A stretch of 63,998 nt of DNA, the filler included, from Perkinsus olseni (lineage: Eukaryota): the NCBI GenBank assembly GCA_013115125.1. It is 12 parts of 12 records of this genome, joined end to end, with 100 filler letters (N's around TTAATTAATTAA, not from the genome) between each part and the next. Parts side by side here need not be neighbours in the genome. Positions count along the whole stretch, not along the records: positions 58,852 to 63,998 come from JABANN010001214.1; 11 more parts are not named here. The stretch is one strand, 5' to 3'. A program made the position numbers and the translations under genes. Shown piece after piece: positions 5,408-62,700 of the stretch; the first letter of the stretch is position 1, and every line of letters starts with the position of its first letter. A model generated the notes under the pieces. That model was not told the DNA's origin, searched no databases, and saw only the letters and a list, made by a program, of their open reading frames with translations.

Positions 5408-5460
5408 TATCGTGAGTCATTGATAACCAAACCCCACTCTAGTGGATTCTTAGAGGAATC

Positions 5461-5581
5461 TGTAATTAATATTATTGAGCATTACGCTCTACTAGCACAG
5501 CTTGTGTCCGATCTATGAAAGATATCAATTAAGGGACACATCCGCGCACAATTAAGGAAATAAACACAGTGGATCACCACA
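5461..5581 (-). repeat. Putative short LTR (about 121 bp, TGT...ACA)
   Basis: On minus it starts TGTGG directly after the polypurine tract and ends TTACA. Its 3' end recurs at 10694-10712. The 3' boundary is uncertain and could extend about 20 bp. Confidence 0.65.
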
Positions 5582-8500: not shown

Positions 8501-10653
8501 TCGCGTGGTTCATCAGGTCGTAGCTTTCGCACTCTCATCCTATACGCTGGAGCGCTACTCAAATGGAACCACCGATCATCTTCTGGATCACAAGTATCAT
8601 CAAATTTCTTGACCGGAGTGAAGTTTTCGTCAATAGTACCGATACGAGCCAGCAGAGGGGTCTGTTGGCCCTCCTCAGCCAAAGCGTCGGAAGAACAGAT
8701 GATTTTGTTGTTACCAGCATCAATGAATACTCCAAGTGCAGCTATACCCTCCCATCCAATGAATAAACCCGGAGACAGCGAGGGAACAATATGGAATGGT
8801 AGTTGGCGGAGAGAACCATCATAGCAAATAAGTAGCTGGACACAACCATTGGAGCTAACCTTAGTACCATCAGCGAGGGTCACTGAGTGTCTGATTTCCT
8901 TGTTGACCGAGCAGGGATACCCAGCATCCTCAAGTGATGTAAGTAAGGACCGTCCAATGAAGTTAAAAGTAGCTCCTGTATCAAATAGTGCGGCCTTCTC
9001 AATGCTCTCATGAGAAGTTGTCACTGACAAGGGAGGCAAGCAAATCTCCACCTTCCTAATAGCCGAGCCAATATCGGTGGACTGGTTGCTCTGAGAAGAT
9101 TCATCACAGAGTACCATCGCCGAAGCCTTAGGGTCAGAGGACGGTGTCGTAGCAGGAGATTTTGAAGGAGCCGGTTTACCATTATCCGAAGATTTACCAT
9201 CTGATAATTTCGTAGGCATACTTTCATTCGACCTTAGCCTAGCTTCCTTCAATGCTAGCTTTGGACAGTTAGCCTTCACATGACCGGCTTCTCGGCAATA
9301 ATGACAGATCTTATCAGAAGTCAAATTAGGCGCAACCGTACCCCCACTAGTCACATTGGATGGTCTCAATGTCGTTGTAACAGATACTGGAGTTGCAGTA
9401 GCAGAAGTAGTGGTGGTATTAACTGAATCAGATGGTAATAAGCCATTCTGCGATCGTCTAAATACACGCTCTTCTGATATAAGTCTTGATACTAAGTCGT
9501 TCAAAGAGGAAACACCCGTACCAATCAAAGTCGCTGCACTCAATGTCCATCTAACATTAACCGCCGAAGCAAATTGCAACGCAGATTGAGAGTCATCAAT
9601 CTCATTACCTAAGCATCTGGCCTCCTCCTGAGCGTTCTCGAACCGTTGGGCAAAAGCAGAGAGCTGTTCAGTTTTTCCTTGACGAAGCTGAAGCAGAGAG
9701 TTCCATGACTCAAGTTTACCGAAATCACCGCGACCATAGGCAGTTAATAAGCTACTAACTTCACGGCGAAGTTCAGATACCAACTCAGCATACGTACGAA
9801 TAGCAACTGGATGAACGACCGCTCTAGCTTCTCTACTAACTTGGCGTTTCAACATCTCTCTATACTCGAGAGCAGACCAACATTCCTCATTAGCCAGATC
9901 ACGGAGATAAACCAATACCCTGCGGATGGAGCGAGAATCGTCCTTCCCAGAGAAACTACCTCCTTGAAGAAGCTCAACATTACTAACAGTCTTCCTAGCA
10001 TCCCGCCGATCTTGAGATGTGATGGGGCCTCCAACACCAGAGAAAACCGGCAGCAGACTGTCTATGCCAGAAGGCGTTGCTTCAGAGGCTTGGCCTTTTG
10101 ACAATGAAGTAGAACTCGGTTCAACCTTAACCGGTTGCACAGCTGGTTGGCTCCCAGAAGAAGAAGAAGGGTTCTGAGGAGTCGGAGAAGACTGTCGATA
10201 GTAAAAAGGAAACCTGTCGGGAAAAGAGGGTTCGAAGATACTCGCTTTGTCAAAGTTCAAGAACTTCAACGCAGTGATTTTTCTCGCCCTAATATCCCTT
10301 TCACGAGAGGCCTCAATGGAGTCGGACAACCCAAGGTCATCGATAAAGTGTGGCCAAACGTAGTCAAAGAAGTTAGTCAATAAGACCTCACTCGGCTTCG
10401 AAGAAAGCATTGTCTCCAAGTAATACTCCCCACAACGCCAAATAAAGTCACCAGCCGAATCAAGAGTAACCTCCTTCTCTTTCAACGCGCCACCAACTAT
10501 CGCCTGAAATTTGGGCATAATAATCCCAAGCCTCAAAGGCTTGCCCAAACATAAAGACTCAACATTGTCTAACACCAAATCATCAATCTCACTCAAGGGT
10601 AAGTCGTCGTTGTCTGAATTAGATGCAGCCCGAGGTGCCATATCGTGAGTCAT
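5599..10653 (-). CDS. Gag-Pol polyprotein (Gag-CCHC, aspartic protease, RT, RNase H, integrase), 1684 aa
   Basis: CHYCREAGHVKANC zinc knuckle; ALFDTGA protease; TLDCSRAFY and VYLDDI RT; LECDAS and SDSK RNase H; HETNGH...CPQC plus D, SDNG and NGKAER integrase. Order PR-RT-RH-IN. Confidence 0.95.
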   Translation of the reverse strand: MTHDMAPRAASNSDNDDLPLSEIDDLVLDNVESLCLGKPLRLGIIMPKFQAIVGGALKEKEVTLDSAGDFIWRCGEYYLETMLSSKPSEVLLTNFFDYVWPHFIDDLGLSDSIEASRERDIRARKITALKFLNFDKASIFEPSFPDRFPFYYRQSSPTPQNPSSSSGSQPAVQPVKVEPSSTSLSKGQASEATPSGIDSLLPVFSGVGGPITSQDRRDARKTVSNVELLQGGSFSGKDDSRSIRRVLVYLRDLANEECWSALEYREMLKRQVSREARAVVHPVAIRTYAELVSELRREVSSLLTAYGRGDFGKLESWNSLLQLRQGKTEQLSAFAQRFENAQEEARCLGNEIDDSQSALQFASAVNVRWTLSAATLIGTGVSSLNDLVSRLISEERVFRRSQNGLLPSDSVNTTTTSATATPVSVTTTLRPSNVTSGGTVAPNLTSDKICHYCREAGHVKANCPKLALKEARLRSNESMPTKLSDGKSSDNGKPAPSKSPATTPSSDPKASAMVLCDESSQSNQSTDIGSAIRKVEICLPPLSVTTSHESIEKAALFDTGATFNFIGRSLLTSLEDAGYPCSVNKEIRHSVTLADGTKVSSNGCVQLLICYDGSLRQLPFHIVPSLSPGLFIGWEGIAALGVFIDAGNNKIICSSDALAEEGQQTPLLARIGTIDENFTPVKKFDDTCDPEDDRWFHLSSAPAYRMRVRKLRPDEPRDTEEQVYCFELDLQGAMRPIDGLTRSGDYSGKLIQRLSPEEKKLFHDEIGSYTDKSWWRKEPVEDDDDENAVSDVSPFPPITVFPVRQPGKSTPIRPCCDCRGVNSISERAGYLSADVTTLTSRLLGSYRRGDSFCTLDCSRAFYRLRTNVRLPLRVAGVSYSSNRVIFGLCSGPSSLEFAMDYLLRYTASLSSRFHSVRYDVVSGSRKVHRAWVYLDDITLSGSYCDVMAFKKMLVKTASKFGFSFPESKQEILTPDSGQKRVTHLGSLWGIEDGVLKCFCKRNTARFDELCRVPVRSKRHYFALAGLLTDYPVGHARSRLAVDVMRSIVGSYKGDWDAKLDLSDDHVRQLDKLISIVKDDFERPCQHCSASGDNATLECDASSVGFGYIFKLGSFESSRAKPFSKSQSAWHVNRREAWCILQGLLANLPLLEEFTADREAPLRLTIVSDSKSAISWLRDNHIYAKSVERLALRRMLNTLEDIRHLFDQMNVRLVFEKIAGVDNSAADDLSRLLNSWGISSVEDTTTDSTPSTDLKALQTAAPSEELGEEPDINGPVEVCSQVMDIDSAKPDEVVKWLWSVQDGDSFISELRDFLSNESKNDYLRRLLKNEGRWYALDRHGLVVECRFRDGEAVPPRFCVLLPNDPTLLSDFARHYHETNGHCSLRYVQYLFTRDFVAPKFKQAAATIIKECPQCVEKRVKLASSGGRSSYGDSTADLDGVWCTVYSDIGDMLVKDRFGFRYFVALVDALSSFCWLVPLRSLEARELCRAVSGVCERIGWCHHFKSDNGGGYISRTFRALLSSQGVSWSGVPRHSPFSNGKAERCIGSVKAKFSTMSRAEKREWSVHLAYVNRCVNLVPLDNGLTAFETFFQRPYNSILDRKFAAVDDLVMQKTMDLEDKKPQGHLKSFSVGSWVRRCNPAVKDKARYKVVEVHKRSVGLQLDGDPDSPVVLEHVRNIVAANAPSS

Positions 10654-11996
10654 TGATAACCAAACCCCACTCTAGTGGATTCTTAGAGGAATCTGTAATT
10701 AATATTATTGAGNNNNNNNNNNNNNNNNNNNNNNNNNNNNNNNNNNNNNNNNNNNNTTAATTAATTAANNNNNNNNNNNNNNNNNNNNNNNNNNNNNNNN
10801 NNNNNNNNNNNNGAATGTCACCAATCTGGCCCGCGATGGTCTTGCCAGCAGATTGTGCTGCCACAGCACATCTGGCCAAACCATCGGCCTCTTCCCACTC
10901 TCCCGAAGAGAAAGCGATTTAATTCTCAGAGGATCTCGCCTTCTCTGGGAGGCGGTCAAAGATACTACATGAAGGGCTGAAGATAACATCTTCGGACATT
11001 GTCCGATTAGATTGTTGACCATCATCAAGGAGTCCTTTGAAGGACCGCTTATTGACTTTTATCATCTATAGGTGATTGAGTTGAGTACTAGTGTTAGATT
11101 CCTGCTCACGGGATGTAGAACTTCGAACGCAGCCGTGATCATCGAGGCGGTCACCCGGGCGGATTTTGAACTATTGATGTTGCCACATGAACGTTGTGGA
11201 TACATCAGGAAAAGCCACAACATGCATACTCAGATAAGGCGTAGCCAGGCTCGGTTCAAGTATTTATGTCATCGCAAGAACTTACCCGCGGGCCTGAGGC
11301 TGAGTCGCCGCTGCTGAGACCAAAGCTTGGCCGCCAACTCGGTGTCGTCCAGACCAAGGCCTATTAGCAGTGCGCTTAGGCTCACGAGCTATGTGCGTAA
11401 GTCGTGATTTACTGAATCAGGTTTTGCTAGTTCACAATTTTGTGAACCCCTGAACGCCCACGCTGCCAATATCCAGGCAGGAGGGTCTCGATAGGACCGA
11501 TCCCTGACCAAATATGCGGCAAAGAGTATGTCCAGCGCCGTCAAACTGATGGCCGTTGAGGCACAGGATAGTCTCATGAGTAACTCATGATGAGTTCACA
11601 GGTCCATGAATGCGTTGACATCGCCCAATCTCGTTCTCACGTCACGCTCACTCAGAACGCAACGTTGTTCCGAACTACTCGACAGATAATCGGTCCCGAT
11701 TCATCTAACGAACTCATCGAAACGGTTCAACACCTATCTGGTCTGGTCAGGAGTCGGTGATTACACATAATAGTCATGTGACTCGCGGTTGGTGACTGAC
11801 AAATGGAAAATTAACGGATCCTTGCCATCTAGCTTTCCTTCGAGCTCGGTAGAGCCTCTTCTACAGTTGGAATTTCCCCAGCAGGAGCACTTTGAGCACG
11901 GCGATTACACCGCGCTGAGGCAGCAGCTGTGAACAGATAGACAGTAGATGTCGAGCGATAAACCTCCCTAATCACTCGGCCGGTAGTTCCTTTCCT

Positions 11997-42924: not shown

Positions 42925-45676
42925 CTGCATACTGATATCATTGACTGGCGACACGTTGGCGTTGCGCTAGTACGGGACACTCGCACGAGTCACAACAATA
43001 ACGGATACCTTCGGCAGAAACGGAGAGAAACAATAGTGGCACCATCATTGATTGTCCATGAACTCCCTCAAGAGCATGGTCGCGAATGAGCCGGCTGGCA
43101 GATGGAACTACCAACAAGCGGGATGGCTCCCGCCTTCAAAATCCAGTTCAAGACAAGCCAGCCCACTTCTGAAAGAATGTTGCAGCTTGTGTCGGTTCCA
43201 TTGCTTTCCTCAACTGCGCGCAAAGAAGTAGGTCGCACAACGAGCGGTCGAAAGTGAATGTCTATCCTGGCTTTGAAACCCAGCGTCCGAGAAAGATCGC
43301 AGCTTTCGGGGTTCTTGAGGACCGATTCGGTTATCTCTCCTTTCTGTAAAGAATTCTCGAGCATGCAACGATACCTGTTGTTCTAGTTATGAGCGTGAGG
43401 TTGTCATCGCAGCGACCATACATTTCATACGGTGCGAGACCGAGGTTCGCTAAGGTTGATGAGTCGCCCTCTATCAAGTGCCCCAAGTAGGTAGAATGAC
43501 GTCCCGTAACGTGTAGCTGAGACGTCAGCCAGAGATGCCAGTCAGCTGCATAGCGACCAGCCGGCGAACCAGGACATCACGTGCAGAAGCTTCTACTCGG
43601 AGTCCCGGTAAATCAAACCCCTTCCACACACCCAGCTTTGCTGTCATTCGTCCCAACCTGCTGCGGCTCATTCGAGCCGTCGCGCAAGACAAGATCGCCC
43701 GGCATAACGCTGAGACCACCTCGGCAGATACGGCTGAGGAATCAACATGACGGACCCTCTATTTCACCTGTCTCACTCCGAAGCTAGCTGGTTCCATAAG
43801 TATGATTGGTACGCACTCAAGTAGAGCAGCAGAACATTCCGTGGGATACCGCCTCTCAGTGCCACTCGGTAGCGGTCCGACCCACGATTCTTAGCAAATT
43901 GCAATAAAATATTCGCCCAACTGAGACAAGGAAGGAAAATTACAACAAAATTTCACGGGTGTGTAGCTCAGTGGTAGAGCGGCTGACTGCAGATCAGGAG
44001 GTCCTCGGTTCAAATTCGGGCGCGCCCTTGTACTCTTCGCATCGATTGATTACATTCTTGCGTTGGTGGACTTCTTCAAGACTATCAAGGGCTCTGTCGT
44101 ATCCTGACTCCACTGTCGCACAACCTGAGTATTTTAAGACCGGTACCATGGAGAGTAGAAAGGAACCCATGGCCGCCGACGGCCCCTCCACCGCAGGGCT
44201 TGCTTTGGGAACATACGGTATATTCAACGAGCTGGGCATGTCACATATCGGGCTTGGTCGCTTCTCTGCCGGCTTACCCCGGCTGCGGCTGTGCGATCAC
44301 TGCTCACTGGAGACATGATCAGCCGTAAGGCTTTTTTATACTGGCCTGATATGATAGCGCCGCCAATGTCGATCTGACATTCGTCGATTCTGCGAACGAT
44401 GTAGCCCCACGGCTAGTGGCACCCGAAGCAGCCTTGAAAGTGACTTACGTTACAATGCCTTGTCACCTCATGGTTCGGATTGATGCCGAAGCGCTGTAGT
44501 CCATAGTAGATGATGGAATCACTGCTCTCGAAGGAGGACAGCGCTTCCACGACACCGCGTTTCGCACCTCTTATCCGTACTCGAAAACAATTACTGAAGC
44601 GAACTCACAATCACAAGCAGAAGCACACTCACATCGTGCACTCCTACCCGAGAGAGAGGCCCTCGCGTAGTTTCGATGGACCCGTGTTGACGACAAAATT
44701 ATCGACCTCACACTTTTCCCTCGGCCCGGCGCTGATGTCATCAGCGCCTCGCGTATTTGTTGCTCGTCGTGGGTTGCCGGTAGTGTCATATACCTGGCAA
44801 AGATCCACCATACGTATTGGAGCCTCGGACAATGAGGAGATGGCGCTCACGCGCCTTTTCTGGTAGGTCGCTCCGAAACGATCTTTTGTCCCTCGATAAT
44901 GAAGACTGTTATTTGGTAGCTGCAGTTTTTGCTCTATGGCACGCTGAAGGGCGCTGGTGTCCCAACCAGTCTTTTTCAGCACAAATTTCCAACGATGGGA
45001 GTTGAAGAGCCCAACGGGGGAGTGTTTCCTTTTCCAGCTCAGCAGCACCTGCACCGGTCGCTGGGTGATTTGATGTTCATTCACCAACTGAGAGAAGAAC
45101 AAGCCACCCACAGTAGTCTCCTTCATCGTGGACACTTCGAGGTTCTCGAAATGCGTGATCAATTTTTGACGGAATACCTCAGCATTGCTTCCACGGTTGA
45201 GTCGAATCGTCGTACCACCGTCACTGAATCTAAATTGAAGTCATAGCAAAAAGCGCAACCGACAGCTGCTACCCTCTAAGGACAAACCGCATGAGTTCTA
45301 TCGCCTTCTCCCGCGGCATAGTGTCGAGGAGACACTTGTTTCTACTGGCCTCTGCAGCTGCGTAAAACAGCACTTCATGAGATAAGATCTTCATCGGTAT
45401 CACAGCGAGGGTCTGCGGTCGGAACGAGGGTTCTGTCGCGTAGCCGTGAGCGGCGGCGCGTCACCTTCCGGATCGTCCAGGCTAGCGCTCCTCGGATCTT
45501 GTGCACTGTCTCTAGGTCATCATCACCATCAACCCGCGGGAAACGGCATAGCAGCCCCCGAGCATTGCGGGTCGACTTCTTTAACTAGAATTAGGAGACT
45601 GCACAAAAAACAGACCGGGCCCTGAAGTCCATTACGGCTGCGCGGTCGAGGAACTTTTGTACTTCTGAAACGGCAT
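42925..45676 (-). CDS. PUS7: TruD/Pus7-family pseudouridine synthase, multi-exon
   Basis: FVLKK..WDT, YRGTKDRFGATYQ (catalytic Asp motif), IYYGLQRFG (~44485-44513), IPRNVLLLYLSAYQSYLWNQLAS (~43780-43848), FRPLVVRP. Ends approximate; could be a PUS7-like paralogue. Confidence 0.85.
43957..44028 (+). tRNA. trnC-GCA: tRNA-Cys (GCA)
   Basis: GGGTGTG/CGCGCCC acceptor stem, TAGCTCAGTGGTAGAGC D-arm, CTGA-CTGCAGA-TCAG anticodon arm, GGTTCAAAT T-loop, and the U73 discriminator typical of tRNA-Cys. Confidence 0.93.
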
Positions 45677-47340: not shown

Positions 47341-48144
47341 TTACTTACTGCGTTGAGGGAAATATGCCGACTCCACAATTGAGGAACAAGACAGGCCGAC
47401 AACTGGGAAAGTGAGCGTTAGGCCCGCACATTGTCCGCATTGGGACCACCGGGCCTCGCGGCCACCATACGGCCAGGCGACTCCAAACCACCATGAGGGC
47501 AATGTTGGAGTTTGTAAGGTTCTTGGTAGGGCGAACCAAACCACAATAAGTAGATAGGCGATGCGGCCACGTGAGACATAGCTGGGTCCTCTTCATTGAT
47601 CATAATGGTATCGCATGCGACACAGGTTATTTACAATACTACACTTGGTTTTTTTTCTTTATTTTTTCCTTTTTTTATTTTTTTATTCTTTTTATTGCTG
47701 TTTTCGACCATATTGCACAGGCACATTGCAGCCAAGCCTGATGCTTCTCTCCCATAGTGCTCGATTTTTTGCAGTACTGGGTCTTCCACCAATATCTTTC
47801 ATATCCTGTTTAAGCAGATCTAGCCAAGTTTGACGGGGTCTACCAGCTCGTCGAGTACTGTTGGTATGTACTCTCGGGTTCCAGTTGAGTAAGTTGTTGA
47901 CATTGTTCTCACTTGGTGCCCTCAGTAGATGTCCATACCATCGCAGCCTTCTCGCGCGCAGCTCATTAGAGCAGCCTAGCGTTCGAGCTTTGCAGCAGAG
48001 CTCGCGAGATGTCATTCTTGTCATAGGGGAAATTCGTAAGACTCTTCTCAGACATATGTGATAAAATGTTTTATACATTTGCTCTTCATCTTTGTTGATC
48101 GCCATCGTCTCCGATCCATAGAATAGTGAGGCGAAGACTATTGA
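47341..48144 (-). mobile_element. 3' end of an RTE/RTEX-like LINE (ORF2 C-terminus, 3' UTR, short GTAA tail)
   Basis: CLRRVLRI, RRLRWYGHLLR, RRAGRPRQTWLD, AKNRALW. Ends GTAAGTAA on minus. 48073-48144 is the reverse complement of 63927-63998. Confidence 0.88.
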
Positions 48145-58751: not shown

Positions 58752-59795
58752 NNNNNNNNNNNNNNNNNNNNNNNNNNNNNNNNNNNNNNNNNNNNTTAAT
58801 TAATTAANNNNNNNNNNNNNNNNNNNNNNNNNNNNNNNNNNNNNNNNNNNNCCTATGCCCAGTGCCATCACCTCTTGTGCTCGGATGAGTGTGCGTCTCT
58901 TCCTGAAAATAAAACCTGTGCAGCCTGCTTAGACACCTTCCACTGCAGAGACGGGATCTTGAGCTGCACAGGCCTGGCTAAACTACCTCCTCTCGCGACG
59001 AAAGAGAGTGACAAGTGTCTACCGAAGGGCCATCGTCAAGGGTAGAGTATTGAGCGGAATGTCTTTGGTGAGCTCATGGGATGGCTTTTGCATATATGTC
59101 GCTTCGTTGTCTGTCTCTATTCATCGGTCGCTATCTGTCGGCGATATCCAGCGGTAAGTGCTATTATGGATGATCTAATTTGGTGCTCGTCCACCGGGGT
59201 CGGTTGCGGAAATCAGTCTTAGTCAGTCAGACTGACTCGGTCTTCCTTCGCAAGGAAGTCCAGCATTTGATCTGATTGAACGCCGCATCAGGCATGCGTA
59301 TTTTGCTCGGGCCGAGCTATGGCCGTCTTTTTACTCGATACATGGGTCACTGAAGGCCCGATCTAGACTTGAGTACGGTCGCCTTTGTGAGAGATGGAGG
59401 ATACTCCATAGCCCGTACATGGTCCGCACGTGTGCACAGAGGCTGTTATGGGCCGTGGTTAGGCCTTGTGTCTCTTCAGGCTACTGTGTAAGCCTGGATC
59501 CTTTACTTACTATCAAATGAGAGAGAGGCTGAGAATGGCTATCCTTACATCATTCATTGTAGATGCGCTGTCTTGCCATTAGCTATGCCCTGTACACAGT
59601 TGCACTCATACACTACAGGCTTCTCGCGCCTCAAGGAGCCTTTCGTTGGGATTCAATACAGGCACACAACAACGCCGTGAAACCCTGCCTTCATTTCCTT
59701 CGTATATGCGTGCATCCCTATTAATAGTCTACTATTTCGTCAAGGACAGTAGCTGGTGTGCTAAGGGGATGCTAAGATTCAGGCTTTTTCTACGT

Positions 59796-62700
59796 TTTTG
59801 AGCCTAATATGGCAACGTGTTCGGCAGTCGGGGCGCGAGCATCGTATCTTATCGCAAGTTGGGTAACCCAACCTTGACAAGATTCCCTCTTCACCCCACC
59901 CAAGAGAGTGATACGTAGCCATCTTGGCTCAAGATCTATTCTTCGCACACTCCCTTCCGCATGCCCGTCTCGCAAAGCGACCTCGTCCAACTACAGCAGC
60001 AGATCGCCGATTTATCTGCTGCAGTTGCAACCAAACAGGATGCCCAAGTTATGAACGACCAAAATGATAATGTACTGGGAGTCAAGGATTGCCTGGGGCT
60101 TCTAGAGAGTAAAGTGAAAGCTATGGAGGATAGAATGAACATGGGTATATCTAATCTACATATGAAGATCCAGAACACCGACCAACGTCTAGCCGATATT
60201 GATGCGAAAGTCAACGGATGCGTTGAAGGAGAAAATGGATATACAAGCTACAATGATGAAGGATATGTACGGTCTCCTCAATAATATGATTAATCGCCCG
60301 AGCCGCGAGCCTACTGAAACTGAGATGCCGGCAGCAGTAACAAACCCCAGGGGACCGCTGCCATCAACTGACACGTCATTCTACCCAAGCAACTCAGTAA
60401 CCAACTTCGACTACAAACTGAACGCGAAGATCGTTGTATTCGGCATTCCGGAACCTGACTCCACGCCCACCATCGGCTCTACAGAGAAGACTGAGTCACG
60501 ACCCACTGTTCGAGCACAGAGAGAGAAGGTATTCAATGATGCAGCGGCAAAGTATGCACCGGAAACTCTACGTAGCGCGAAACGTCTCGGTACTTATCAG
60601 CCAGGGACGGGTGCCCTATCTGTGTCCAATTCTCTTCGCCGGATACCGCTAGAAACTTCCTAAGAGACAATGGGAGCTCTCTTCGCGGACAAGGTATCGG
60701 AATGAAGTGGTGGCGCCCACTGAGGCCCAAGATCGGCACTTCGGCTAACACTATCAATACCATGGCGGCCAGAATAGAAGAGCTGGAGGCGCGCATGAGA
60801 ATGGAACCTAGGAGATCAAGTGAACAAACCATTCCTATCTCAATGGATACGGTTTTTCGGAATTAACTACCAATAGATCTGTGATACGAAATGAAGCTGC
60901 TTCACTGGTGAATCATGTGGATAAGAATGTGACGTCGAGCCCATCTACCTACTGTATGTCTTCACTGATACAATATCTGACTCTGTAGTCATCAACGTTA
61001 ATGAGACTCACTGTACCATTTCTTCTAGTAATGAAGCAATGTACCCTTCATCTGCTCTCTCTCGTAATATCACTGACGATTCGAGTGTCGTAGAGACTAG
61101 TGCTCGCTCTTCAAAAAGAAACACAAAAGAAATAAAAAGAGGCCATAAGTTTTCAAAAGAAAACAAAAAGAAAGTCAAAAAGAGGGGAAAGAGTCCCAAC
61201 AAAATGAATGCCGAACCCCCAAATCATACTAGTGATAGTCATCTCGATCATAGGTACACCCCAGCAACATCTGCGGGATACTCCGCCATCGACCACGGGA
61301 ACTCGCAAAGATCACGAGCCGAAGACTACACAAGCCGCTGCCCATTACTAGGGCGCAGGAACCCTTTCAAGGTGGGAACCCTGAATGTCCAATCAGGAAG
61401 GTCACAGAAGAGGTTTGAACACCTCATGCGGATGATTGATGAGACTAATAATGATATATTGATCCTCTGCGAGACTCACTGTCGACCCCCGGAGCATGTT
61501 GGCGAGAAGAAGGTAATCAATGCGGATGTAGAAGAAAGTATCAAGGCCATACTGTCACCCCGTTCACAAGCAAATTTGATGTGGCAAAAATCATTTGGGC
61601 ATCGAATCCTCACAATGAGACTACATACGAAGTGGTTCCGCATAACTATCATCGGAGTGTATTGGCCTGCGCAGACTGCCTCACGTCCTCAGCAGGAGCA
61701 TGATGCATTTGCAGCGTCGCTGTCAAGTGTACTAGATGAAGTTCCCGAGAGGGACTTGCTAATACTTATGGGCGACTTTAACTGCACAGGATAGAACTGG
61801 AACATGCTATCTAATCTAATTGAAGCCTTCGATCTATGCATACCGCAACTGAGGAAGTTCCAACACCTCAAGAAAGTACCTGCATGGCATCCACCTGGAT
61901 CTCCAAGTGGCCACGGAAATGTCATCGACCTCTTGACTGTGAGAAAGCGCCAGATTAACATGATTGAGAAGATGTTCATAGAAAAGCCACAGTACGTGAA
62001 TACAGATCACAAGATGGTTATTGCGAAGTTTGGGCTACATATATGCCGGAAATATATGGGAGACCAATCTGGGAAGCGGGGTACAACGAAGATGTTCTCT
62101 GACTTGTCGAAGCCATAGCTATTATCATCACTAGAAAAGAACATGATGACCCATCTGGATCAGGTCCGTGATGCTATTGAAACAGGGGATTTAGATACGA
62201 TATGGCAGCTCTTCAAGGATGCACTACNNNNNNNNNNNNNNNNNNNNNNNNNNNNNNNNNNNNNNNNNNNNNNNNNNNNNNNNNNNNNNNNNNNNNNNNN
62301 NNNNNNNNNNNNNNNNNNNNNNNNNNAGGGTAGTAGCCGTATGCTACAAAATGCTCACGGGACATCTAATCATGCCTCGACTAGAAGACCCGCGGTGCGC
62401 CAGAAAGAAGAGGAGCGAAAGAAGCTACGAGCCTCAATGCGGGAGGCAGTAGACGATATCCGAGGCTTGTCAATACATGATCAACGGTCGATATGGGCTA
62501 TTCTCCGGAGGAAAGCAGGCATCAGAGGGGCCCAAACATCTATGCCAGAACAGCTGGGGGCGAAGGATTTTGCTACCTACATGAGAGAATTATACTCTCT
62601 TGATGAAAGCCTATCCGCTGCGCAGCACGCTCCAATTAATGAGACCTCTACAAGCGCCGCTCTCAACTATAAGAACTCGCTGAACCACCCTCACCCATTG

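Follow-up and report, generated by a model that had tools for sequence, protein, structure and literature searches.

In the Perkinsus olseni DNA analysed here, a spliced leader (SL) sequence at positions 59914-59933 (+) stands directly ahead of a LINE-type retrotransposon, and we interpret it as the relic of a trans-spliced LINE mRNA that was fixed in the genome by reverse transcription. We assign this reading a probability of about 0.75. All positions refer to the window, that is, the whole stretch of 63,998 nucleotides under analysis, joined from 12 parts. The observations that carry the interpretation are an exact SL without a splice donor, the LINE domains and tail that follow it, and homology with another copy that begins at the SL. 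The mRNA of the element would gain the 22-nt SL by trans-splicing, as other Perkinsus mRNAs do; target-primed reverse transcription would then reach nearly to the capped end, and SL positions 3-22 would become DNA immediately before a short leader and the start of ORF1. The upstream sequence of some 120 nt (118 nt at 59796-59913) would be flank of the insertion site and lie outside the element. Its complementarity to the SL would be fortuitous, or would stem from a decayed, unrelated SL-like sequence on the opposite strand, with no masking or cleavage of the leader. A preliminary description of this DNA had named the relic of a trans-spliced LINE mRNA as an alternative, and of the readings considered it agrees best with the evidence.

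The spliced leader sequence ahead of ORF1

The match to the Perkinsus SL is exact over 20/20 nucleotides and is the single exact site in the window; judging by 100 shuffles of the window, 0 occurrences of the 20-mer are expected, be it exactly or with up to 2 mismatches. It is identical to positions 3-22 of the 22-nt PmaSL1 as printed in the available text of two articles (PMC3101222, PMC9399869). Positions 59912-59913 read TA where the published SL has AC, and the first two SL bases are absent. Directly after the match comes ATCT, a GT donor is absent, and the first ATG past the SL, at 59961, lies 27 nt downstream and opens ORF1 of the LINE, the intervening leader (59934-59960, +) being free of ATG. 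In these respects the preliminary description, which had reported a 20-nt exact match 27 nt before the ORF1 ATG and no splice donor, was correct. What the genomic DNA holds is SL exon sequence without an SL intron or donor, and an SL that lacks its first two bases and continues with ATCT instead of GT fits a relic derived from cDNA, as opposed to an SL RNA gene. For P. marinus, more than 100 loci with intronless SL copies are on record and were shown not to be SL RNA genes (PMC3101222, available text). Elsewhere in the window, a second SL-like site with 2 mismatches lies at 16281-16300, which makes two strong SL sites in 64 kb.

Where the retrotransposed unit begins is indicated by a contig from another sequencing run (X9 contig 25; 1029 nt, depth 30.4). 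It aligns with 23 mismatches over 895 nt and is about 97% identical over ORF1. The alignment starts at base 57 of the contig, which corresponds exactly to 59914, and the first 56 nt of the contig are unlike the window. The one other DNA copy examined (1/1; n=1) therefore has a different upstream sequence, and the 120 nt that the preliminary description expected family copies to share are not shared by it. This copy also carries a 10-nt insertion, GATCTTAGTT, after 59932, at the junction of SL and leader. Over 59643-59868 both X9 and X7 have a depth of 0, gaps in the cover of X7, X8 and X9 being no evidence of absence. Low-depth colinear contigs cross the SL in X7 (59885-60247, depth 5.8) and in X8 (59784-60052, depth 2), runs that we guess to be RNA, so that some transcripts, or contaminating DNA, contain the upstream stretch.

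Among metagenomes, the SL 20-mer was found at 63 loci, 0 of which continue with the leader of the LINE, and a tblastn search of 7 translated LINE pieces against these loci gave 0 matches at E<=1e-3; the loci served solely as controls for the test of upstream complementarity given below. An 18-mer spanning SL and leader has 7 matches in prokaryote genome contigs, none with the remaining SL upstream and hence attributable to chance, and 0 in viral contigs.

The body of the LINE and its ends

The SL heads a decayed LINE of about 4.5 kb that comprises ORF1, an AP endonuclease, a reverse transcriptase and an A-rich tail. ORF1 (59961-60866, +) has a coiled-coil-like N-terminal region and a possible RRM, a combination that would mark an L1-type ORF1, and is interrupted by two frameshifts near 60222 and 60615. 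Relative to an intact protein of 406 aa (P0001) its frames run 0, +1, 0, and the X9 copy has 8 additional nt after 60221 and 16 after 60614, at the sites of these frameshifts. The N-terminal sequence MPVSQSDL also opens ORF1 in 2/2 other database proteins (P0001 and P0003), and a near-identical ORF1 protein is labelled Perkinsus olseni by its source. Searches with ORF1 returned no Pfam family and no match among PDB sequences; a structural match of residues 147-267 to Transposase_22 clusters in the Atlas stays under the bar of the tool.

ORF2 (61039-63998, +) is broken by stops, frameshifts and a gap of 99 N at 62228-62326. The AP endonuclease at about 61375-61785 (Pfam Exo_endo_phos, E 1.6e-6) and the reverse transcriptase at about 63185-63610 (Pfam RVT_1, E 1.2e-8) both score above the Pfam cut-off; for the 150 C-terminal residues of ORF2, Pfam yielded no family. 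With its endonuclease upstream of the reverse transcriptase on one strand, the element is an AP-endonuclease-type non-LTR retrotransposon. Its end is found on another contig of the window. Positions 63926-63998 and 48072-48144 share an identical overlap of 73 nt through which the reading frame runs, and judged by this overlap the stretch 47649-48144 (-) is the remainder of the LINE that starts at 59914. It holds the C-terminus of ORF2, a stop at 47692-47694 and the A-rich tail at 47649-47691.

A degenerate target-site duplication possibly adjoins both ends of the element, with a weak 5' candidate at 59900-59913 (+) and a 3' candidate at 47635-47648 (-), right after the A-rich tail. When the 14 nt before the SL are compared with the 14 nt after the tail in an anchored manner, a fraction of 0.00135 among 20,000 random pairs resemble each other at least as closely; when the 30-nt flanks are compared locally without an anchor, the score is not significant, being equalled by 29% of random pairs. 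The two candidate copies have no exact k-mer of at least 7 in common, although the element copies differ by only about 3%.

The complementary stretch upstream and the enclosed spacer

A stretch upstream of the SL, which the preliminary description had presented as complementary to it, does pair as described. In the minimum-energy fold this 'anti-SL' (59796-59821, +; 26 nt, in flanking DNA) forms 23 pairs with 59910-59934, interrupted by three 1x1 loops, and the duplex of SL and anti-SL alone amounts to -27.8 kcal/mol. The fold of the whole 168 nt reaches -48.9 kcal/mol (z -2.24), a stability attained by 4/200 shuffles. Across the 64-kb window on both strands (12,430 windows of 40 nt, about 125 kb), an equally good partner of the SL exists at only two unrelated loci, 27211 (-28.9) and 38411 (-28.7), and 0/50 environmental SL controls have an equal partner in the upstream 200 nt (best -27.3, median -18.65). 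The pairing is rarer than chance, roughly at the 0.3-2% level. Such a pairing strength above chance expectation counts against the relic reading, which offers no mechanism for it.

The 88 nt enclosed by the helix (59822-59909, +) had been described as a structured RNA, a view that the folding energies do not sustain: the fold of -22.2 kcal/mol shows no excess (z -0.58), and 53/200 shuffles fold equally well. HDV-like ribozymes occur at the 5' ends of LINEs. An Rfam scan of 59000-60600 at E<=10 revealed no ribozyme, its only hit being a 13-bit ALIL noise match at 59295-59333, and at the gathering threshold the whole window yielded no ribozyme and one tRNA only; the hammerhead core CUGANGA is absent from both strands of 59700-60060, HDV-like folds being able to escape the Rfam and motif scans used here. 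In addition, an ATG at 59809, inside the anti-SL, starts a uORF of 22 codons, so that the upstream stretch would make a poor leader.

When the flank 59630-59913 was searched by sensitive blastn in the remainder of the window and in the 63 metagenome loci, only chance 11-14-mers came up, and a comparison by eye of the minus strand beyond the anti-SL with the start of the P. marinus L-type intron, as given by primers, found GTAGA alone in common. An origin of the inverted SL by twin priming or snap-back was considered and rejected, the sequence to the left of the anti-SL not being the reverse complement of the leader; it is also contradicted by the direct part, which begins at the SL itself.

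Alternative explanations

The anti-SL could itself be an SL relic, older than the first and on the minus strand, left by a separate RNA that was retroposed leftward. Two SL-headed retrocopies would then stand head to head, 92 nt apart, and the hairpin would be a by-product. Read on the minus strand, 59821-59796 is indeed SL-like, aligning to the SL with 17/22 matches and one extra base (about 77% identity), and SL relics are common: over 100 are on record for P. marinus (PMC3101222, available text), and the 64 kb analysed here contain two strong ones. However, some 5 further sites in the window equal or nearly equal the DNA-level score of 23, no minus-strand ORF of at least 60 aa lies to the left, and the abundant RNA contigs on that side stop some 170 nt short of the anti-SL, at 59618 and 59629. 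An independent relic within 200 nt is itself only about 1% likely. We regard this origin as unlikely. In the mimic proposed in the preliminary description, the element itself would encode the SL together with the anti-SL and the enclosed core, and this core, by its structure or by cleaving itself, would mask the SL or release it. We consider this very improbable: the upstream sequence is missing in 1/1 other copy, the core has a z of only -0.58 and contains neither an Rfam ribozyme nor a hammerhead core, the uORF falls within the supposed leader, and the present copy, with its broken ORFs, is a pseudogene. On the other side of the balance are the helix, which is real and nominally improbable by chance, and the colinear contigs of low depth that span the region in the presumed RNA runs.

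Two further accounts accept the SL as it stands and place the element differently. The SL might head an ORF1-type gene only, one that was retrocopied from a LINE ORF1 mRNA or else domesticated, with the endonuclease and reverse transcriptase part as a separate neighbour. Both in X9 and at the locus of P0001 the ORF1 part lacks the window's ORF2 after it, so that the SL-headed unit could be ORF1 alone. The depth of 30 in X9 is confined to 59914-60809, falling to about 3 and then to 0 past 61111, X7 contigs span only 59885-60682, and residues 287-406 of P0001 are without any match in the window. Gaps between contigs do not prove absence, however, and the ORF1 stop (60864-60866) is separated from the ORF2 ATG at 61039 by 172 nt on the same strand, with no A-rich tail between them, which is the usual bicistronic layout of a LINE. 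We hold a solitary ORF1 unit to be quite unlikely. The other account, also raised in the preliminary description and unsupported by our results, holds that an SL RNA gene was the insertion site of the LINE, in the style of CRE, SLACS or NeSL, the SL being host target sequence. It agrees with the complete 3' end of the SL exon next to the element, and the 3' flank opens with CCAAG and then GTAG, a faint echo of an exon end before the start of an intron. Yet the first two SL bases are absent, the other copy likewise begins at the SL despite its different upstream flank, and the endonuclease is of the AP type. The start of the P. marinus SL intron is not present in the 3' flank. Allowing up to 3 mismatches, a motif from P. 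marinus primers that joins exon end and intron start occurs 0 times in the window. For the intron part by itself the count is 5, with 4.69 expected, and all 5 lie away from the element. These results carry the proviso that the intron of the host species may differ; according to the available text of PMC3101222, P. chesapeaki has an SL intron unlike the P. marinus one. Of all the explanations weighed here, insertion into an SL gene strikes us as the least credible.

Relation to known systems

Slamovits and Keeling reportedly described, in 2008, relic SLs on recycled cDNAs and retrogenes of dinoflagellates. Dinoflagellate relics of this kind, on recycled cDNAs and retrogenes, are also covered in the available text of three articles (PMC7245778, PMC12014239, PMC3942190). 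As in those relics, the SL described here is encoded in DNA at a retroposed 5' end, is intronless and 5'-truncated, and the explanation proposed for it is that a trans-spliced mRNA was reverse-transcribed. In contrast to them, the retroposed RNA would be the retrotransposon's own mRNA and not that of a host gene, and the relic is single, without tandem truncated relics.

The elements CRE1/2, SLACS, CZAR and NeSL-1 carry a restriction-enzyme-like endonuclease and are sited inside SL RNA genes. They share with the present element the position of a LINE beside an SL exon in a trans-splicing organism, and differ from it in that here the endonuclease is of the AP type, the SL is 5'-truncated and the flanks show no SL gene. 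A further parallel is offered by the trypanosomatid L1Tc/ingi elements, which also inhabit an SL trans-splicing host and must define the 5' end of their own mRNA. Their 5' module, Pr77, serves as an internal promoter, and the transcripts it yields are unspliced (PMC1874656, PMC8190864, available text). Unlike Pr77, the sequence upstream of the SL in our window contains no conserved 5' module that we could find and no ribozyme signal. A literature search returned no description of SL-headed LINEs in the text it covered.

If the relic reading holds, the mRNA of a retrotransposon in Perkinsus is itself trans-spliced and takes the SL into new insertions. The relic would then be a precise marker of full-length 5' ends for this LINE family, and some of the intronless 'SL-like' loci of P. 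marinus, which are unexplained, could plausibly be identified as such relics. The relic reading also does away with the idea of an SL mimic that is masked or cleaves itself. We speculate, as a tentative extension that we hold to be possible but doubtful, that the element has no promoter of its own and that the AG of the SL relic is re-used as a trans-splice acceptor in read-through transcripts. This would rebuild a capped mRNA from the first base of the element, remove foreign upstream RNA such as the uORF at 59809, and allow the mRNA to be recopied into the next insertion; re-use of this terminal AG would make the element independent of a promoter, and the P. marinus 'SL-like' loci might in part be such 5' ends.

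These P. marinus loci (Zhang et al., 2011; PMC3101222) resemble the present site in being of the PmaSL1 type, in having no recognisable intron downstream and in not being SL RNA genes, as far as the available text describes them. Compared by that description only, they are mostly arranged in tandem arrays with variable downstream regions, and the available text draws no link to retrotransposons (PMC3101222). The 'PmaSL-L1-like' primers printed there continue past the SL with ATCTTAGT, which equals the bases after the SL in the X9 copy (PMC3101222, available text).

The spliced leader as the probable first bases of a LINE

The 20-mer at 59914-59933 is the only exact match in the window to the 22-nt Perkinsus spliced leader (SL), and none is expected by chance (none in 100 shuffles). 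It corresponds to positions 3-22 of PmaSL1, the 22-nt leader of Perkinsus marinus (PMC3101222; PMC9399869); bases 59912-59913 are TA, where the SL has AC. ATCT stands directly 3' of the match, where an SL RNA gene has GT, and the next ATG lies 27 nt downstream at 59961, so that the preliminary description of an exact SL, lacking a splice donor and placed 27 nt before ORF1, was accurate. The SL is real and is of interest mainly as a marker.

Behind it lie ORF1 (59961-60866), an Exo_endo_phos domain (about 61375-61785; E 1.6e-6) and an RVT_1 domain (about 63185-63610; E 1.2e-8), all with broken reading frames. The contig carrying them (58852-63998) contains a 99-N scaffold gap at 62228-62326, and its last 73 bases match, base for base in reverse complement, the terminal stretch 48072-48144 of a different contig, across which the minus-strand reading frame runs on to a stop at 47692-47694, followed on that strand by an A-rich tail (47649-47691). 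Domains, continuing frame and tail therefore identify an AP-endonuclease-type LINE of ~4.5 kb.

The ORF1 family has no match in Pfam or PDB sequences. A protein search retrieves an intact relative of 406 aa, P0001 (98% identical; labelled by its source a hypothetical protein of Perkinsus olseni), and a partial one, P0003 (95% identical), both starting with MPVSQSDL. The Atlas structural clusters nearest to residues 147-267 of P0001 are L1 ORF1p (Transposase_22) and RRM, a likeness below the search tool's bar that can serve as a lead only. Relative to P0001, ORF1 of the window changes frame near 60222 and 60615, where a contig of the public run X9 has 8 and 16 extra bases; this marks the window copy as a pseudogene. 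One contig of run X7 (depth 2, side 28) omits the 52 nt of 60453-60504, whose ends, CT..AC, read GT..AG on the minus strand; an antisense RNA spanning ORF1 may have a short intron here.

Contigs of four public runs were compared with 58852-62227 at a likeness of at least 80%. In X1, the probable source run, one contig covers this entire range and nothing else falls on 59643-62227; the window copy is therefore single at that likeness. X9 comes from a different sample and is guessed to be DNA; its contig 25, of 1029 nt and depth 30.4, shows 23 mismatches in an alignment covering 59914-60305 and 60307-60809. This alignment begins only at contig base 57, the preceding 56 bases being unlike the window, and homology therefore begins at 59914, the first base of the 20-mer. 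Depth is 0 over 59643-59868 in both X9 and X7. The 120 nt upstream are missing in the one other DNA copy compared (1/1), an outcome that the preliminary description had itself named as refuting its model.

The 14 nt that directly follow the A-rich tail and the 14 nt that directly precede the SL are alike, both beginning with CCAAG, and this likeness was matched by 0.00135 of 20,000 random anchored pairs. Because the match requires two indels and shares no exact 7-mer, which is poor for copies only ~3% apart, it lends weak support to a putative target-site duplication. Short high-depth X9 contigs match only 59873-59916 (44 nt), the immediate 5' flank of the LINE, with 25 unlike bases before it and unlike bases after 59916; they may derive from the edge of a repeat or from an empty site related to this one.

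The SL is most probably a relic of a trans-spliced LINE mRNA. In the proposed course, the LINE mRNA receives the SL by trans-splicing and reverse transcription halts two bases before the capped end, so that new copies would begin with SL positions 3-22. Reuse of the relic's terminal AG as a trans-splice acceptor is a tentative, rather doubtful addition; it would be invisible in contigs, and a read end would depart from the genomic sequence at just two bases. Low-depth contigs that run colinearly through the SL occur in two runs guessed to be RNA, X7 (59885-60247, depth 5.8) and X8 (59784-60052, depth 2); they may be DNA, or RNA of read-through or antisense origin, and they count against the relic reading.

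A real helix, probably in the flank

In the minimum-energy fold of 59796-59963, the anti-SL (59796-59821) is joined to 59910-59934 by 23 pairs with three 1x1 loops; the fold has -48.9 kcal/mol, where shuffles give -39.7 +/- 4.1 (z -2.24; 4/200 as good). The duplex alone reaches -27.8 kcal/mol. Among 12,430 40-nt windows on both strands of the whole window, only 27211 and 38411 reach this value or a better one, besides the reverse complements of the two SL relics, which puts the chance of such a partner within a 200-nt upstream interval at roughly 0.003-0.006. As a second control, 63 environmental loci with the exact 20-mer were considered; 200 nt of upstream sequence are available for 50 of these, and none reaches -27.8 (best -27.3, median -18.65). 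By these measures the pairing is genuine and nominally unusual, although it was spotted before any test was set up. Compared with the SL simply as DNA, the anti-SL does not stand out: about five other sites equal or come near its score of 23.

The enclosed core (59822-59909) folds no better than shuffles (-22.2 against -20.4 +/- 3.1 kcal/mol; z -0.58; 53/200 as good), so the SL/anti-SL helix accounts for all of the excess stability seen in the 168-nt fold. Rfam yields no ribozyme at E<=10 over 59000-60600, where a 13-bit ALIL match elsewhere in the range is the only one, nor at the gathering threshold over the whole window, where the tRNA gene at 43957-44028 is the sole match; no hammerhead core occurs on either strand of 59700-60060. 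An ATG at 59809 within the anti-SL opens a 22-codon uORF and none lies between the SL and ORF1, so a working mRNA more plausibly starts at the SL than in the upstream stretch. The pairing proposed in the preliminary description stands, but in the flank and not as part of the element; the evidence lends no support to a leader that is structured or cleaves itself.

Rival origins and known SL relics

Had the LINE inserted into an SL RNA gene, the SL would be host target, and SL intron sequence might be sought in the 3' flank. With up to 3 mismatches allowed, a motif of exon end and intron start is absent from the window, the 3' flank included, and an intron-only motif occurs 5 times (4.69 expected), in no case close to the element. 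Both derive from P. marinus primers, and the intron of Perkinsus olseni may differ, as noted for P. chesapeaki (PMC3101222); we nevertheless regard this origin, raised earlier as an alternative, as very improbable. A unit of ORF1 alone, headed by the SL and lacking this ORF2, is somewhat less remote yet still unlikely. X9 depth, 30 up to 60809, is about 3 past that point and 0 past 61111, and no part of the window matches the C-terminal 120 residues of P0001, so some copies carry ORF1 without this ORF2; against this, only 172 nt separate the ORF1 stop from the ORF2 ATG, with no A-tail between, and the bicistronic LINE is kept as the preferred reading.

The original paper on dinoflagellate relic SLs is reportedly that of Slamovits and Keeling (2008). 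Dinoflagellate retroposed genes are well known to carry such relics (PMC7245778; PMC12014239; PMC3942190). In P. marinus, more than 100 intronless SL-like loci were shown not to be SL RNA genes, and the 'PmaSL-L1-like' primers read SL followed by ATCTTAGT (Zhang et al., 2011; PMC3101222), as does the X9 LINE copy. The literature covered contains no link between these loci and LINEs; supplements may hold more. A second SL-like site in the window (16281-16300, 2 mismatches), 96 nt into another contig, continues from 16301 with ACCTTAGT, near to the ATCTTAGT of the primers; the ACCTTAGTTG following it (site 16281-16310) is 9/10 identical to the 10 nt after the SL in the X9 copy and likewise close to the primer continuation. 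No LINE ORFs follow this second relic; two paralogous small ORFs lie downstream (16855-17340 and 18719-19225).

Surroundings of the locus

The window is not one genomic stretch: it comprises 12 contigs of ~5.3 kb, joined at 11 places (5308-58851) by 44 N + TTAATTAATTAA + 44 N, so distances and neighbourhoods across spacers are meaningless; the SL locus lies on the last contig. The left part of that contig (58852-59629), devoid of ORFs of at least 100 aa, is covered by very abundant contigs from the two runs guessed to be RNA, ending at 59618 (X7, depth 1964) and 59629 (X8, depth 122). Two short repeats upstream of the LINE (59276-59327 and 59523-59611) are matched at 90-95% by many contigs of all runs, with unlike sequence on both sides; in X9 their depth reaches about 35,000. 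Tandem arrays (periods 30, 59, 62 and 37 nt) and a 379-nt inverted repeat (99% complementary, 325-nt spacer) occupy 21497-22505, 26912-27221, 28600-28895 and 34106-35188. The contig at 5408-10712, whose first 72 nt (5408-5479) are identical to its last 72 (10641-10712), may be circular or end in a repeat.
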